Shown one piece after another: positions 38,459 to 46,899 of a DNA stretch of 64,000 nt. Every line of letters starts with the position of its first letter. Position 1 is the stretch's first letter. Source of the stretch: Pseudomonadota bacterium (GTDB lineage: Bacteria; Pseudomonadota; Alphaproteobacteria; RF32; CAG-239). The notes below the pieces were generated by a model. It searched no databases, was not told the origin of the DNA, and saw nothing but the letters and a program-made list of their open reading frames with translations. The DNA lies in NCBI GenBank assembly GCA_918234285.1, contig CAKJXZ020000017.1, positions 1-64,000 of the forward strand, read 5' to 3'. The position numbers and the translations under genes were made by a program.

Positions 38459-41400
38459 ATGAGTAAAGGTCCGTTAACAAGATCAGACAGATATGTAAAG
38501 AAAACCGATAAAATCTTTTTGATTATCGGCATAATTGCCCTGTTGTTTTTCCTGTTTGCCCTGATGCTTATAACGTCGGGTACCGAGGAAGAAGAACAGG
38601 TAGCGACTATCGAACAAAACGGAATTTCCGCCGAAACCGATGTTAACATTAAGAATACGGAAATACCGGAAGATGTGGCTTGGGATAATCCGGATGAAGA
38701 AGAACGCCCGATAACCCTGTCACCGCTTGAGTTGAATATGGGCCAGATTGTTTTGGGTAACGAGGCCACTAACGTTTTGACTATCGGTACCAACGGTAAG
38801 CGCGAAATCAGAATTCTGTCGGTTGAACTTGAGGAGGCACCTTTTGACGGTTTTAGCTACGATTCATCAAATTGTCAAAATAAAGAACTGCGCGGTAAAG
38901 CAACTTGTATGGTAACGACCAAATGGGTGCCGACAATGGCCGCCAACGTTCAAAACAATTTCAAAGTTATTTGGTATGAAACCAACGTCTCGGCGCAAAA
39001 TGCCAAGCACGACGAGGTGACGGTTCGCGGCAGTGCGGTCACCAAAGAAAATTGTAACTATTGTGATACCGGACCGAGCAACGCGGTAGAAGCCTCCATT
39101 GACGGCAGTATGCGTTATGCCGTTGGTCCTGACGGTAAGATTATCGGTACCATCAGTGAGGATGGCAGAGTTTTTGATGCCAACGGTAATGAAATCGGTC
39201 GTCTTAATGCCGACGGAATGATTGTTGATAAAGACGGCAACATTATCGGTGTGGCCTCAAACGGCAAGCTGATTTTGGATGAAAACGGCAACGTTATCGG
39301 CTATGTGGATGCCAACGGTGTTGCGCACGATATGGAAGGTAACGTTATCGGCAATATGCTGCCGGACGGCACAATTGTTGATGCTACCGGCAAGATTATC
39401 GGCCGCGGGGTTGATTTTGGTATTGCGGTTGACGGCAACGGCAATATTTTGGGTAAAGTGTTGCCGGATGGCACGGTGGTTGATGCCGATGGTAATGTGA
39501 TCGGACGTTTGGATGCCAACGGCAATGTAATAGACGTCAACGGGAATATCATCGGCCGTGTAGCCAAAGCCGGCGAAGTTGTTACGGATGCCGACGGTAA
39601 TATTTTGGGTGTGGTTATGCCTAACGGCGACGTAGTTGATGCTGATGGTAACGTTGTCGGACACATGAATGCCGACGGAACGGTTACAACCTATGAAAAA
39701 ATCGGTAAACGCGGCGGTCAGGCGCAAATGGTTTATGATGATGCCGGCAATATCATCGGTTATGTCGATGAAAACGGTAATGTGCACGATTTTAACGGTA
39801 ATGTTATCGGTAAGGTTGATAAAGACGGCAACGTAATTGATAAAAGCGGTAAGATTATCGGACGCGTCAGCGAAGAATGGCGCGATCTGGCCGTGGATAA
39901 CGATGGTAATGTTATCGGCTACATTGATGAAAACAATCGAGTACACGATAACAACGGTAACATCATCGGTTATGTTGATAAAGACGGCAACATTATCGGT
40001 AATAAACCTAAAATTTCCGTAATAGGTACGGTCGGACAGAAAATCAAACTGATTGTCGATGAAAACGGTAATGTTATCGGCTATGTTGATGAATACGGTG
40101 TGGCTCACGATATGAACGGTTCGATTATCGGTAAGGCGGATGAACACGGCAATATTGTGGATGAACACGGCAATATTATCGGTTATCAGCGCGATTTGGC
40201 AGTTGATGATCAAGGTAATGCCATAGGTTATATTGATTCTGAAGGCAATGTTTTTGACTTTGAGGGTAATCTCGTCGGCCACATGGATGAAGAAGGCAAT
40301 ATATATGACGACGCAGGCAATCTTATCGGTCGCAAGGGTGAAATGCGCATAGCTGTTGATAAAGAGGGTAAATTTATCGGCTTTGTTGATGAAAAAGGTG
40401 TCGCCCACAACTTCGACGGTTCTTTCCTCGGAACTTTAGATGAGAACGGTCAGATTATTCGTAAGGATTATTCCGGCGAGGTTATAGGCCACATCAGTGA
40501 TGTCAGAGATTTGGTGGTTGATGAAAACGGAAATGCTTTCGGTTACATCGGTGATGATGGTAATGTTTTCAACTTTGACGGAGATTTAATCGGTCATGTT
40601 GATGCTAACGGTAATATAGTTAACGACAAAGGTGAAATAATCGGTCGTAGAGGCGGTAAAGCCAAGTTGGCGGTGGATGATAAAGGTAAAGTCATCGGTT
40701 TTGTCGGAGACGACGGTTTGGTCTATAAAGGTAATGAAATCGTCGGAATTGTCGATAAAAACGGTAATGTTCAGTCTTTCGGAAAGCGGATTATCGGCGG
40801 AGTCATTGATAAACAATGGTTGCCGATTACGCCGGCGGGAGAGTTACTCGGTACCATTAATAATCGCGGCGAGGTGGTTAATCAGCAAAAGGTGGTCGGA
40901 AAAATGCGTCCGAACGGGCTGGCAACCGATATTTCCGGAGCTAAGATTTTAGCTAAAGGTGTGAAGCAGGGATTTATCGTCAACTGGGGTTGCGACTACA
41001 GTCTGAAACTGGATAAAGACGGCGTAATCCGTCGTGACGGCAAGGAAACCGGTTATAAGGTTTATCCTGACGGAACGGTTTGGACACCGGAAGGAACCTT
41101 TGCAGGTCGTGCCATGATGACCGGTAGTGTTTATGACGATGACTGTACCTACATCGGCGAAGCCATGGCCGACGGTTATGTGCGCGATAATAATAAACAG
41201 GAAGTGGGTTGTATCAATCCGGACGGTACGGTTTTGGATTTGAATGAACCGCGGATAAAGGGACATTTGATTAGCAGAAGTTTTGTAATATCGGCAAAAA
41301 CATGGAAACCGGCCGGAATGCTTGATGAAAGCGGATTGTTGCGTAATGAGCAGGGTGAAGCCGTCGGTTGTGCCGATTCTTTCGGCGACGTGTATGATGC

Positions 41401-45680: not shown

Positions 45681-46899
45681 AGTGAATATTCCGCAGATAT
45701 TTATTCCGGAGACACCGGGGGCTTATGATACTCAAGAAAGACCGGATGCCGGACCTGACGGCGGTCACGGACCGGGCGGAAGATTAAGTCCGGAACGTGC
45801 CGAAATGTTGTCAGCTTTCCAAAAACAACGGCGAGAGCTGATGTATCAGGGCCTACAGGGAGTGAAGCGGGATAATGGCGAATTCCATGCTTCTGCCTTT
45901 ACCGGTTATGAAGAAGACGGTTGGGACGGCGGACCGAGCGGTAATCAAATATCGTCATGGCGTGTTGATATGAGCGAGATGATACTGGAAGACAAAGGTA
46001 TTCCGGCGGTTCTGGCGCGTTCGGTTTATGCTTCCGAAGGTCTGGGTGACAAGATTCCGGTAACGGCGATTGTTGAACGCAACGTGTTTGCCGAAGAAGG
46101 TCGCAACATCATTATTCCTGCCGGCTCACGTGTTATCGGCAGTTTGGATGATAAAACCAATGACCTTGCCGGTGAAAGTGGCGGCGCGATTAAAATCAAT
46201 ATTACATGGAAGCGACTTATTCGTCCGGACGGTTCACAATGGAAATTTAACAGTGCTCAAACGGCCGATGCTCAGGGACGCTCCGGTGCCATCGGTTATT
46301 TGGATGAACAACTGCTGAAACGCTACACTTTCCCGGTAGTTTCTACCGCATTGCAAGGTATGGTTAACGTGCTGATGGCGGCCGGTGACGGTTCGACTTC
46401 AACCACCAACTCAAACGGAACAACCACCACACAAGATGCGCGCAGCGAGGCAATGTCTGATGCCAGAAAGCAGGTTAATGATCGAATCAGTGAAATCATA
46501 AAAGAAATTATGAAGAAAAAGTCAGCCATTAAATCAGTAGCCTATGTTCCGGCCGGTACGCGTATCATTATTTATCCGAACCAGGATTTATGGCTTAACA
46601 GCGTAGAGCGTTCTCGACGCAATGCCGGCAATAACGGGGGAGGCGAAGACAATGGAAAAGCAGTGGTTCTTTCCGACGGTAATGCCGGAGAAGACGGCAG
46701 TGTTGATGTCACCTATGACGGCGGCAGTCAGGGCAACTATCAGCCGGTATCGGCACCTCAGCCTTCGGGAGGAGGTTTAACCACTGAGGAGCCGACGCAG
46801 TCGTATAATCCGAGTAATTACCCGACGCAACCGCCGCCGGCCATTGACAGCAGCAGCGATGTACCTGATTTGGGTACGGGTGATGAAGATATATTTTAG
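42697..46899 (+). CDS. virB10: T4SS VirB10/TrbI with about 1000-aa N-terminal repeat extension
   Basis: C-terminal IPAVL, VTAIVERNVFAEEGRNIIIPAGSRVIG, ITWKRLIRPDG, ADAQGRSGAIG, VPAGTRIII; PEPEPEPEP linker; followed by virB11. Confidence 0.9.
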   Translation: MLRIIKRAKNILFLAGMFLPVSGYAAEITAIDFNGDIIGQVISTGTVINPDGDNIGYITADSLILNEHGAVIGGVVPQGIAIGMDNHLLGKIHSDGVVRSLSGKTVGRSLPNGLVINDTSSVVGAVLYPGIIYSPNGEAIGRLTGGGEYTKLEGQHIGFVSANGYAYRKSGEDYILDGKLMSSKMVVSVDGKFIGSVAPTGQIIDFEGKSVGKIHANGYAYDAQGKVIGSIISTSYAFTQAGKYLGIVGYNGEVKDGDKVIARYRADGKLVKDTGDVIGFAVDIAATANDNVGKYLGYLAPNGNIIHGGKVIGHIGAKGYVYDKDGKKIGDLVKTGPIYDSMARLKGQSMKNGRVISLGGGNIGQMSGNYAYSANGTLLGGTVDSMIAVENNGPVGISNIDAGVTVGGSSVHVSPFGYVINADGKPVGTGYSLSAVYGPEGVLYSYIDPNGTLYRVASGAHLTGSGIVQEGRNFIGEILNPRYALDYEGKPLGTFADSNLLLDQSGNITYKVIPGGYVVETKDKLSPLTSPIKGFSGNKFIALNTSGDLIGYADSEGNVIGTNGDISGHVVYNEYVMDNNGIVNGKLIPFATVVNDKCSIIGVVDGKGDVIDHHDVISGHILPNGQAISDVGNYIGYTVQNHGLIDFDGNFSGTVSGATGRDANGKNIGCVDRRGIITDEEHHQRYGVILPEPVIDFDNKIFGHVLATGKVINSDDATVGYMQPNGNVVSTSKKNLGNVMRYKVAYKNNNTFLGMIDGAGQVKNSKGKVVGQVNFDGSVEYEGANVGYALYDFYVYDDNFVVYGYLTKDGTVLSMVGSRLGKLDRGFVVNRGEVVARGNRDYIVRDNSNNVVGELLLNDTVVNAEGANIGYLKENGAIYDADGNEIAQATQYQYYIATYKPEPTVTRPHRPNITIASGESARPEPEPEPEPGVTIQRPGGSNRNKIVGFYIDPDGNYGGDVYDNGEVIGKDGRKIGYRQDDLIVDENYNPIGTYEVNIPQIFIPETPGAYDTQERPDAGPDGGHGPGGRLSPERAEMLSAFQKQRRELMYQGLQGVKRDNGEFHASAFTGYEEDGWDGGPSGNQISSWRVDMSEMILEDKGIPAVLARSVYASEGLGDKIPVTAIVERNVFAEEGRNIIIPAGSRVIGSLDDKTNDLAGESGGAIKINITWKRLIRPDGSQWKFNSAQTADAQGRSGAIGYLDEQLLKRYTFPVVSTALQGMVNVLMAAGDGSTSTTNSNGTTTTQDARSEAMSDARKQVNDRISEIIKEIMKKKSAIKSVAYVPAGTRIIIYPNQDLWLNSVERSRRNAGNNGGGEDNGKAVVLSDGNAGEDGSVDVTYDGGSQGNYQPVSAPQPSGGGLTTEEPTQSYNPSNYPTQPPPAIDSSSDVPDLGTGDEDIF

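Follow-up and report, generated by a model that had tools for sequence, protein, structure and literature searches.

A giant VirB10 apparently divided between two adjacent genes in gut and rumen Alphaproteobacteria

Known VirB10 proteins and the locus

In type IV secretion systems (T4SS), the VirB10 subunit normally bridges the distance between the inner membrane and the pore in the outer membrane. Canonical VirB10 is one chain of about 400 aa, with VirB10 of A. tumefaciens, TraF of pKM101 and TrwE of R388 as examples of the VirB10/TrbI proteins of P-type systems, and to our knowledge it is one chain in all described systems. The covalent link between anchor and pore is thought to let VirB10 relay the energy state of the ATPases. 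Symmetry mismatch is also known to occur in T4SS structures. In R388, according to the accessible part of PMC9259494, the C- and N-terminal domains of the one chain form the O- and I-layers.

Enlarged forms have been described as well. As far as the accessible part of PMC6761968 goes, DotG and CagY end in a TrbI domain preceded by a large, length-variable repeat region, which in DotG consists of pentapeptide repeats. The proteins studied here share this layout. DotG and CagY, however, each consist of one chain, and their repeats differ in kind from the beta-flower hairpins reported below, as the sequence-only reading of this DNA had already held. Our literature search found no report of a naturally split enlarged VirB10.

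Beta-flower proteins (PF21784 and PF21785, clan CL0395) were described by Durairaj et al. 2023 (PMC10584680). In the accessible part of that paper their domains are small, about 96 residues long and built from 8, 10 or 12 strands, and have no known role and no match among solved structures. Here, in contrast, arrays of about 55–70 hairpins lie inside a T4SS subunit.

In the window, i.e., the whole stretch of 64,000 nucleotides that was analysed, VirB10 reaches about seven times the normal size, and two adjacent genes encode it rather than one. The pair sits between virB9 and virB11, as it does in related loci:

34970..36826, + strand: two tandem virB8 paralogs (34970–35722 and 36074–36826), upstream context
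36842..38455, + strand: virB9 (CagX family), 537 aa, stopping 3 nt before ORF1
38459..42694, + strand: ORF1, putative N-terminal half of a split VirB10, 1411 aa
42697..46899, + strand: ORF2, putative C-terminal half of a split VirB10, 1400 aa
46911..47885, + strand: virB11 ATPase, downstream context

VirB9, encoded next to the pair, ends in a weakly SPOR-like region of the peptidoglycan-binding type. The order virB9-ORF1-ORF2-virB11, read from complete loci, is found in 34 pairs, barring contigs that end before virB9 or virB11.

The pair resembles canonical VirB10/TrbI proteins in its C-terminal TrbI barrel, its placement between virB9 and virB11 and the Pro-rich stretch before the barrel. It differs in that the tail and single membrane helix, which canonical VirB10 carries on the barrel chain, are both on ORF1. 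Additionally, there are two chains, of which the barrel chain opens with a predicted signal peptide, and they contain an insertion of about 2,100 aa of beta-hairpins plus an Ig domain.

Modules of the two chains

The features of ORF1, the junction and ORF2 are as follows:

38459..38512, + strand: predicted cytoplasmic tail, residues 1–18, K/R-rich
38513..38584, + strand: membrane helix, residues 19–42, an uncharged run of 24 residues
38711..39040, + strand: PapD/ASH-type Ig-like domain, residues 85–194 (AlphaFold2, Foldseek)
39104..42658, + strand: beta-hairpin (beta-flower/DUF3659) array of ORF1, residues ~216–1400, 17-residue period
42684..42689, + strand: GGAGGA Shine-Dalgarno site for ORF2, within the last codons of ORF1 (..RRN end)
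42692..42694, + strand: ORF1 stop codon TAA
42697..42771, + strand: predicted Sec-type signal peptide of ORF2, residues 1–25, predicted cut after ..SGYA
42772..45369, + strand: beta-hairpin array of ORF2, residues 26–891
45385..45492, + strand: Pro/Glu-rich linker, residues 897–932
45526..45681, + strand: short last hairpin block of ORF2, residues 944–995
45682..45948, + strand: Pro/Gly-rich region before the barrel, residues 996–1084
45982..46596, + strand: TrbI/VirB10 barrel domain, residues 1096–1300 (Pfam, own-genome search, ComB10 2bhv)
46597..46896, + strand: low-complexity C-terminal tail, residues 1301–1400

Tail, helix and Ig domain occur in ORF1 only, and the TrbI barrel in ORF2 only. 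An anchored first chain devoid of a VirB10 domain had been proposed from the letters, and this is what we found: the helix has a Kyte-Doolittle peak of 3.24 over 19 residues (2.76–3.31 across 34/34 pairs), AlphaFold2 models a helix at residues 8–39, and Pfam gives no TrbI match in ORF1. In an alignment of 42 split and fused homologs, the tail positions S9, Y12, K15 and N17 are near-invariant.

Residues 85–194 are modelled by AlphaFold2 as an Ig-like sandwich with pLDDT above 90. Foldseek matched it to HYDIN (2e6j), CEP192 (6fvi) and VesB (4lk4) with E values of 1e-6 to 1e-7; against 2e6j and 6fvi, E was 3.5e-7 to 2e-6 and TM(target) 0.63–0.70. The model thus suggests a sandwich of seven to nine strands like those of ASH, HYDIN and VesB. 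In the 42 sequences, its cysteines C139 and C150 are invariant, and C199 and C202 nearly so. Pfam found no Ig match in the window's own ORF1. Among the fused homologs, two are hit by its ASH model, one with 27.4 bits against a cut-off of 27 and one with 22.1 bits.

Both chains carry the same repeats, about 1,190 aa in ORF1 and 870 aa in ORF2; together with the short last block, all repeat stretches sum to about 2,100 aa, in line with the more than 2000 aa of shared repeats noted at first sight in two ORFs 2 nt apart. Pfam assigns Bflower_2 (PF21785, 6.9e-72), Bflower (PF21784, 3.7e-33) and DUF3659 (1.9e-30) to ORF1 and Bflower_2 (7.8e-39) to ORF2, with beta-flower scores of 238.9 and 132.4 bits against a gathering score of 38. 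The only repeat families that it lists in the two ORFs are these three and RHS_repeat. In both, self-identity peaks at a lag of 17 (0.17–0.26 vs a median of 0.07–0.09), followed by 34 and 51. Hairpins with a [DNEQ]xxG turn and short antiparallel strands are present in both arrays, and ORF1 has 47 copies of the motif Gxx[hydrophobic]G (residues 226–1361) and ORF2 has 30 (35–972). When the last 300 aa of ORF1 were compared with the first 300 mature aa of ORF2, hhalign returned a probability of 99.95% and an E value of 1.7e-37 over 280 columns. The two arrays are homologous.

AlphaFold2 models the first 300 mature residues of ORF2 as one rigid all-beta body (pLDDT 92.7, pTM 0.87). VIA-align cuts this model into units, each some 51 residues long, and finds no chain at Z ≥5; a search of solved structures with the hairpin array gave no match. 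A beta-flower is a closed, shallow barrel with 4, 5 or 6 hairpins as petals; for the arrays, whose model breaks into the units just named, closed 4-, 5- or 6-fold flowers are at most a possibility.

The Pro-rich regions of ORF2, read directly, follow the repeat array and not a helix. Its barrel matches TrbI (PF03743) with an E value of 4.1e-30 and 105.5 bits against a cut-off of 35. The closest solved chain is H. pylori ComB10 (2bhv, 1.2e-19), while CagY chains match weakly (2.5e-4 and 5.5e-4). The NCBIfam models for ComB10 and VirB10 gave 3.6e-32 and 2.1e-23, both under their curated cut-offs.

Single-chain relatives and the origin of the split

The split form is found in a family of uncultured gut and rumen bacteria. 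Within the order, the TrbI domain was found in 150/151 genomes and the ORF1 module in the same 150, so the first gene is conserved beside virB10, as the initial proposal needed. In none of the 150 were the two modules in frames of the same length; they lie in separate frames in all of them, across 20 genera, and both frames are open for more than 1000 aa in 144. Per copy, the two chains add up to 2,573–4,155 aa.

A search for fused homologs among other small-genome Alphaproteobacteria, in different families of the class, found single-chain giants of 1273–2831 aa, again flanked by virB9 and virB11. All 11 proteins examined (G027, G184, G189, G204, G243, G272, G364, G379, G432, G494 and G548) carry the N-terminal module, Bflower_2 and TrbI. 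They match the pair in gene neighbours and in the order of parts (tail motif, helix, ASH-type Ig, hairpins, Pro/Glu linker, TrbI) and differ by having one open frame. ORF1 residues 6–206 are 34% identical to the N-terminus of the single-chain protein P0025 (E 2e-27). The tail, helix and Ig domain of ORF1 are thus homologous to the N-terminus of proteins that end in TrbI, which bears out the idea of a split VirB10 with its anchor on the first gene. All internal Kyte-Doolittle peaks of the fused proteins are at most 1.96, without a strongly hydrophobic segment, and no internal signal peptide was found in these proteins.

In a VirB11 tree of 42 rows, unrooted apart from midpoint placement, a single branch separates the 31 split rows from the others (UFBoot 95, SH-aLRT 91), and one change suffices in 96% of 200 bootstrap trees. 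One lineage (G273) has the identical break point by HMM (214 and 197 bits), and the ORF2 leaders of three lineages start alike. These comparisons indicate that the split has a single origin. Within the fused proteins the break point has no definable position, as the repeat profiles fit at many places. We take the fused state as ancestral, since VirB10 is one chain in the described systems.

Judged by sequence comparison, then, the split is a true and ancient division of an already giant VirB10. Fused relatives reach 1930–2831 aa, and therefore the split is not the source of the large size: the enlargement appears to predate it, and splitting is not what enlarged the machine. The suggestion in the sequence-only reading that dividing the protein was a way of building a larger T4SS has to be given up.

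A proposed two-chain VirB10 and other readings of the locus

Our main reading, to which we assign a probability of about 0.65, is that ORF1 and ORF2 together make up one VirB10, each being half of it, with the following history and working. Comparison indicates that the ancestor was already a single giant chain made of an 18-residue cytoplasmic tail, a membrane helix, a PapD/ASH Ig domain, a long array of 17-residue hairpins, Pro/Glu linkers and TrbI. The array then acquired a stop codon together with a ribosome-binding site and a new Sec signal peptide, by the same comparison in the common ancestor of this alphaproteobacterial family from gut and rumen and of two lineages next to it. ORF1 would insert N-in into the inner membrane, its Ig domain and about 70 hairpins reaching into the periplasm. 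ORF2, translated by coupling from the site in the last codons of ORF1, would be exported by Sec and cut before AEITAIDF, and its barrel would join VirB9 beneath the outer membrane. The two hairpin arrays would associate non-covalently, which would restore the link between the membranes and build a large periplasmic scaffold.

We are more tentative, at somewhat under even odds, about the claim that throughout the family the covalent link between anchor and pore has been replaced by a non-covalent joint of two rod-like, beta-flower-type arrays. If true, the periplasmic scaffold would be unlike that of any solved T4SS, and the beta-flower fold, so far only predicted, would gain its first biological role. 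Anchored and pore-forming halves could then assemble in different copy numbers, a possible answer to the T4SS symmetry mismatch.

We infer that the halves associate because they co-occur strictly, appear translationally coupled and have best-conserved new termini. The same evidence makes it unlikely that the split is real while the halves no longer form one VirB10, with ORF2 confined to the outer membrane and periplasm and lacking an inner-membrane link, ORF1 acting as a separate scaffold of the machine in inner membrane and periplasm or as a cell-wall binder, and no direct binding between them. Such independence would fit the weakly SPOR-like end of VirB9, the length of ORF1, which at 1054–2199 aa in the 34 pairs is more variable than a fixed joint predicts, and the annotation of some beta-flower relatives as cell-wall-binding proteins in the accessible part of PMC10584680. 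Against it, the last 650 aa of ORF1 and the first 350 aa of ORF2 are conserved at the level of single positions, in contrast to the middle, which is variable. The last 25 aa of ORF1 are conserved at 0.80, although part of the conservation of this C-terminus (..NRRN) reflects the Shine-Dalgarno site encoded there, not a protein interface. ORF1 has also retained the tail motif of single-chain VirB10, which makes sense if the signal must still get to the barrel.

We consider it improbable that the ORF2 N-terminus is an uncleaved signal anchor. On that view ORF2 would be complete, a giant VirB10 with its own anchor, and ORF1 would be another anchored protein, a paralog-like partner. Cleavage had been proposed from the first, and ORF2 residues 1–25 have the Sec/SPase I features: the n-region is positive, the hydrophobic h-region is short, and positions −3 and −1 hold small residues. 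The window's leader of 25 residues has 4 K/R and 16 uncharged residues in a row; position −3 is G and position −1 is A. Hand rules applied to 34 orthologs gave 2–6 K/R and an uncharged run of 11–20 residues in 34/34, with small residues at −3/−1, right before the strongly conserved start, in all leaders scored. The cut site was placed automatically by motif search in 32/34 (in one of these, L035, 5 residues early) and read by eye in L063 and L073; as ORF2 start we took whichever of ATG, GTG or TTG came first near the stop of ORF1, so single cases may be wrong. The leader has no Cys and therefore no lipobox. Its conservation is the lowest (0.25), as in cleaved leaders, and that of the next 75 residues among the highest (0.64–0.73). 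No 19-residue Kyte-Doolittle window reaches 1.6 in 12/34 leaders, the window's included, whereas every ORF1 helix peaks at 2.76 or above; in L064 the sole ORF2 window reaching 1.6 is internal. An anchor is conceivable in the other 21/34, since their peaks reach 1.6–2.58, with uncharged runs of up to 20 residues. ORF2, however, lacks the cytoplasmic tail motif. By the hand rules, its N-terminus looks cleaved rather than anchored.

That read-through or a programmed frameshift at the junction yields one fused chain is very improbable. The stop codon and the ORF2 ATG at 42697 are only 2 nt apart, and ORF2 is in frame with ORF1 in 5/34 pairs. However, all three stop codons occur (TAA 22, TAG 5, TGA 7), as do all three frame offsets (21, 5 and 8), and gaps vary from −4 to +25 nt. 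A start codon is kept together with a Shine-Dalgarno-like site, at most 21 nt upstream in 32/34 pairs, and in a fused product the hydrophobic leader would end up midway along a periplasmic array. As far as the 34 pairs indicate, the junction is under selection.

There is next to no chance that the stop stems from faulty assembly or sequencing, or that the gene is a recent pseudogene: the assembly is of metagenome type (71 contigs) and repeats are hard to assemble, but we reject this reading on the junction in other runs and the separate, long open frames in all 150 genomes. None of the listed runs containing the stretch is on record as an RNA run. Contigs of four other runs from three studies (X2, X3, X4 and X5) run across the junction and show no indels; X2 shows no difference, and X3 and X4 show 4 substitutions, none of them at 42684–42699. 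Together with the 34 junctions, this settles the doubt first raised about the TAA: the stop is real.

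The virB10 locus and its two open frames

The genome measures 2.0 Mb in 71 contigs, of which C17 is the window. The region upstream of ORF1 has three TrbC/VirB2-like genes, virB4, a number of frames without assignment, two virB8 paralogs and a virB9 gene encoding 537 aa; virB11 follows ORF2. ORF1 and ORF2 are separated by a TAA and then 2 nt.

Type IV secretion system (T4SS) genes (window coordinates unless a contig of the same genome is named)
20395-21558, three TrbC/VirB2-like genes in a row
34970-36826, two virB8 paralogs
36842-38455, + strand, VirB9, 537 aa, roughly double the usual size
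38459-42694, + strand, ORF1, open frame of 1411 aa
42697-46899, + strand, ORF2, open frame of 1400 aa
C53:7251-11958 and C24:33186-34799, three tandem TrbL/VirB6-like frames on the former contig and VirD4 on the latter

The T4SS genes of this genome are duplicated and scattered: TrbC/VirB2-like and TrbL/VirB6-like genes occur three times each and virB8 twice, and VirD4 and the TrbL/VirB6-like frames are on contigs other than C17. We take this layout to be similar to that of the vir homologs of Rickettsiales.

Parts of the two proteins (residue numbers)
ORF1 1-18, K/R-rich tail
ORF1 19-42, uncharged stretch, Kyte-Doolittle peak 3.24
ORF1 85-194, Ig-like sandwich (AlphaFold2, pLDDT >90)
ORF1 ~216-1400, hairpin array (Pfam), period 17 residues
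ORF2 1-25, signal-peptide-like leader, Sec type by sequence features
ORF2 26-891, hairpin array (Pfam Bflower_2, 7.8e-39)
ORF2 897-932, Pro/Glu-rich linker
ORF2 944-995, short last repeat block, then a Pro/Gly-rich stretch
ORF2 1096-1300, TrbI/VirB10 barrel (Pfam)

By its barrel, whose nearest solved chain is ComB10 (2bhv, E 1.2e-19), ORF2 is a member of the VirB10/TrbI family, but the tail and helix usually found on the barrel chain are absent from it. In ORF1, AlphaFold2 with a 42-homolog alignment models a helix at residues 8-39 followed by a low-confidence acidic linker. The Ig domain noticed in the sequence-only reading was recovered as the sandwich, which matches PapD/ASH domains of HYDIN, CEP192 and VesB (Foldseek, E 1e-6 to 1e-7). 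Two cysteines are invariant in the homolog alignment and two nearly so; together with the positive tail they fit a predicted topology with the N-terminus inside and the bulk of the protein in the periplasm.

Both ORFs had been proposed to carry the same repeats, and Bflower_2 is indeed found in each. Since hhalign joins the two arrays at 99.95% (E 1.7e-37), they are homologous. The ORF1 array matches Bflower_2 at 6.9e-72, Bflower at 3.7e-33 and DUF3659 at 1.9e-30, and the only name that one source gives to an ORF1 ortholog is 'DUF3659 domain-containing protein'. The model of mature ORF2 over its first 300 residues has 34 short strands (pLDDT 92.7, pTM 0.87). Compared with solved structures, this model had no global match (best Foldseek TM 0.17), none of 48,161 chains reached a Z of at least 5 in VIA-align, and the array profile found nothing below E 0.26 among PDB sequences.

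AlphaFold models alone underlie the description of the beta-flower fold, in which small domains of 8, 10 or 12 strands have a [DNEQ]xxG turn and lack a solved relative; no secretion system is mentioned in the part of that description available to us (PMC10584680). Among the matches listed for the fold, no title has secretion as its topic, and the sole topic found for DUF3659 was fungal lipid droplets. The arrays would place a fold that was prediction-only so far in a defined machine and compartment. Outside the T4SS locus, the same genome has weak Bflower_2 matches at C3:79018-79314 (-) and C65:15111-15248 (-), in frames of 415 and 447 aa (E 4.4e-7 and 5.4e-4, both under the cut-off).

The junction and the ORF2 leader

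The stop codon between the two frames had been flagged for confirmation. Four further sequencing runs, drawn from three studies, have contigs that bridge the junction with zero insertions or deletions. The first is identical across it, the second and third have 4 substitutions, none inside 42684-42699, and the fourth contributes one read-length contig spanning 42661-42811.

The junction was compared in 34 complete pairs of genes. Besides the window's own pair, these come from 15 loci of the same genus, 5 named loci, 12 loci of the family's other genera, and genome G273. Outside this set are loci truncated at contig ends (L026, L032, L040, L046, L047) and near-duplicates or genomes fetched twice (L039, L042, L043, L044, L050, L051, L054). 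ORF1 stops with TAA (22 pairs), TAG (5) or TGA (7); gap widths range from -4 to +25 nt, and the frame offset is 2 in 21 pairs, 0 in 5 and 1 in 8. An SD-like site nevertheless lies within 21 nt 5′ of the ORF2 start in 32/34 pairs. Stops, gaps and frames so varied, together with the SD-like site kept, rule out an error of assembly, recent decay to a pseudogene, and recoding by read-through or frameshift.

The junction pattern points to translational coupling of ORF1 and ORF2. In the window, the site (GGAGGA, 42684-42689) is encoded within the final codons of ORF1, and the conservation of the ORF1 end (..NRRN) may be due in part to the ribosome-binding site lying there. A scan for consensus promoters and terminators found nothing at the junction, and no RNA was present among the listed runs containing the stretch.

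The ORF2 leader had been read as a cleavable signal peptide, and the features of one are present in all 34 orthologs, whose leaders measure 24-35 residues in total, with 2-6 K/R and an uncharged stretch of 11-20 residues. Small residues occupy -3 and -1 of the putative cut site, followed by a conserved (A/Q/V)E-I-T-A-(I/V)-(D/N)-F. The cut was placed by automatic motif search in 32/34 sequences (in L035, 5 residues early) and by eye in L063 and L073. The leader has the lowest conservation (0.25), and the 75 residues after it are among the most conserved (0.64-0.73). Kyte-Doolittle peaks of the ORF1 helix are 2.76-3.31 in 34/34 orthologs, against values below 1.6 in 12 leaders and 1.6-2.58 in 21; the remaining one (L064) reaches 1.6 in an internal window alone. 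On these features, we consider cleavage of the leader likely.

Conservation of the pair and origin of the split

In the same genus, ORF2 finds a match in 23 of 24 other genomes (18 near full length in a single frame, 3 cut by contig ends, 2 weak); the sole genome without one is 85% complete. An order-wide survey drew 151 genomes from 20 genera. A TrbI match was found in 150 of them (uncut open frames 1234-2332 aa), and the same 150 carry the ORF1 N-terminal module; the only genome with neither, G092, is rated 100% complete. Lengths transcribed by hand put both modules in a frame of the same length in none of the 150, and give two frames of more than 1000 aa in 144. By the same lengths, the anchor-module frame measures 1039-2734 aa (median 1272) and the barrel frame 1234-2332 aa (median 1481), for a combined length of 2573-4155 aa. 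With the modules in separate frames in 150/150 genomes of 20 genera, the cut in the chain is old in evolutionary terms.

The order virB8-virB8-virB9-ORF1-ORF2-virB11 recurs in every locus inspected in full, so the expectation that the first gene is kept beside virB10 held. Length within the genus varies mainly in ORF1 (1211-1728 aa vs 1385-1425 aa for ORF2). Position-by-position conservation extends over the last 650 aa of ORF1 and the first 350 aa of ORF2.

Fused homologs were sought with ORF1 residues 1-215 in 401 genomes of the class (E <=0.01). Matches were found in 22, including the window's genome and 3 others of its family; we inspected 15 further loci and G027, leaving out G325 and G333. 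Between virB9 and virB11, 11 genomes from other families have a single open frame, 1273-2831 aa long. All 11 proteins start with the ORF1-type tail motif, helix and Ig region and combine Bflower_2 and TrbI on one chain. The proposal of a split giant VirB10 with its anchor on the first gene is therefore borne out: fused chains carry both ends, and the transmembrane helix and tail are on ORF1. A large protein collection holds two more fused chains (2609 and 2484 aa), and two fused sequences recur at identical length in several assemblies. Of the other loci, L072, L077 and L080 are cut by contig ends, and L081 is a weak, unrelated match.

G273 is split, and at the homologous place: its ORF1 end is the best-scoring site for the ORF1-end profile (214 bits), as is its ORF2 start for the ORF2-start profile (197 bits). 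The ORF2 leaders of the window's family, G025 and G273 start alike. In fused chains, internal Kyte-Doolittle peaks are all <=1.96 and the N-terminal helix is the only strongly hydrophobic segment, which makes the ORF2 leader a gain. An unrooted tree of VirB11 with 42 rows has a branch (UFBoot 95, SH-aLRT 91) that sets all 31 split rows apart on one side, and a single change suffices in 96% of 200 bootstrap trees. An outgroup sought in 5 large genomes gave partial matches to other secretion ATPases alone; with the tree unrooted, we take the fused state as older because VirB10 is one chain in described systems. Taken together, these sequence comparisons show that one giant VirB10 chain was divided a single time, giving an anchored half and a predicted exported barrel half, kept together since. 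The enlargement predates the split.

Profile HMMs of the last 300 aa of ORF1 and the first 300 mature aa of ORF2 could not place the break on the fused proteins, as the 17-residue period makes both match many sites. A super-module of ~300 residues, hinted at by aligning one array with the other, was dropped for these multiple matches. Against 1.84 billion representatives, the N-terminal-module profile gave 12,109 matches dominated by proteins with many ASH-type Ig repeats; among the 150 matches listed, a few are full-length N-terminal ones (1102-1361 aa and 1930-2363 aa).

Possible working of a divided VirB10 and its surroundings

Among T4SS subunits, to our knowledge, VirB10 alone is held to contact both membranes. 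How these systems gate and sense energy is modelled on the premise that VirB10 is one chain. The lineage studied here is a natural experiment on that assumption, with the chain long cut and one-chain relatives available for comparison.

Because its tail motif is conserved, ORF1 may retain the inner-membrane contacts of the VirB10 N-terminus. ORF2 would be exported by Sec and form the outer-membrane core together with VirB9, and the two hairpin arrays would bind each other in the periplasm and so restore the link; this last step is the weak point of the scheme. The stalk or cage proposed from the sequence, with both arrays joined in it, is conjectural. In the main rival reading, the two halves would have diverged in function, for example towards cell-wall binding. 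In the part available to us, the beta-flower description lists some relatives annotated as cell-wall-binding (PMC10584680), and the adjoining VirB9 has a weak SPOR-like end. The cut could in principle uncouple copy numbers like those of R388, whose VirB10, in the text available to us, has a 14-fold C-terminal domain (O-layer) and a 16-fold N-terminal helix (I-layer) (PMC9259494); this is speculation.

The known enlarged homologs, DotG and CagY, are each single chains with repeat types other than those of ORF1 and ORF2. Pentapeptide repeats bring DotG to between 1,000 and more than 1,500 aa, and CagY has repeats of its own, according to the part of the source available (PMC6761968). Our system represents a third origin of T4SS enlargement, with a repeat type unlike either. 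Literature searches for RF32, taken here as the name of the order, with type IV secretion returned nothing. Among the matches listed, those for split, giant, elongated or paralogous VirB10 concerned the cag system alone, and those for VirB10 with Holosporales-type names gave VirB10 size in no title or abstract.

The bacteria are common and uncultured, live in rumen and human gut, and have genomes of 1.2-2.0 Mb. They keep the T4SS as a single-copy core locus; thus the system probably matters for life with hosts, protists or other bacteria.

Several neighbours deserve mention. The VirB9 C-terminus has a weak match to SPOR, a domain that binds peptidoglycan (E 8.3e-4, 20.1 bits, cut-off 21), and VirB9 orthologs in related loci measure 484-601 aa. 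Immediately 5′ of the virB8 pair is an ORF of 1789 aa (29579-34948, +) with no match in Pfam or NCBIfam and no usable one in Atlas; relatives have large ORFs in this position (1283-1535 aa where complete). A type IVb-pilus-like cluster with T2SSE ATPase, PilO-like, secretin and TcpQ-like genes adjoins the T4SS (11005-18268, -). Immediately 3′ of virB11 is a gene for a 374-aa DUF3137 protein (47901-49025, +). A gene of this size follows virB11 in several relatives too (L022, L025 and L043); in its place, two same-genus loci have an ORF of 1355-1394 aa (L042 15215-19399, L044 17374-21441). G+C is 0.34-0.39 at 56001-62000 vs 0.42-0.48 elsewhere in the window. Finally, a locus titled 'Lachnospiraceae bacterium' (L049, CAVBCV010000002.1) is nearly identical to the alphaproteobacterial L050 and L051 and has the whole virB8-virB11 cluster; its bin is probably mislabelled or mixed.
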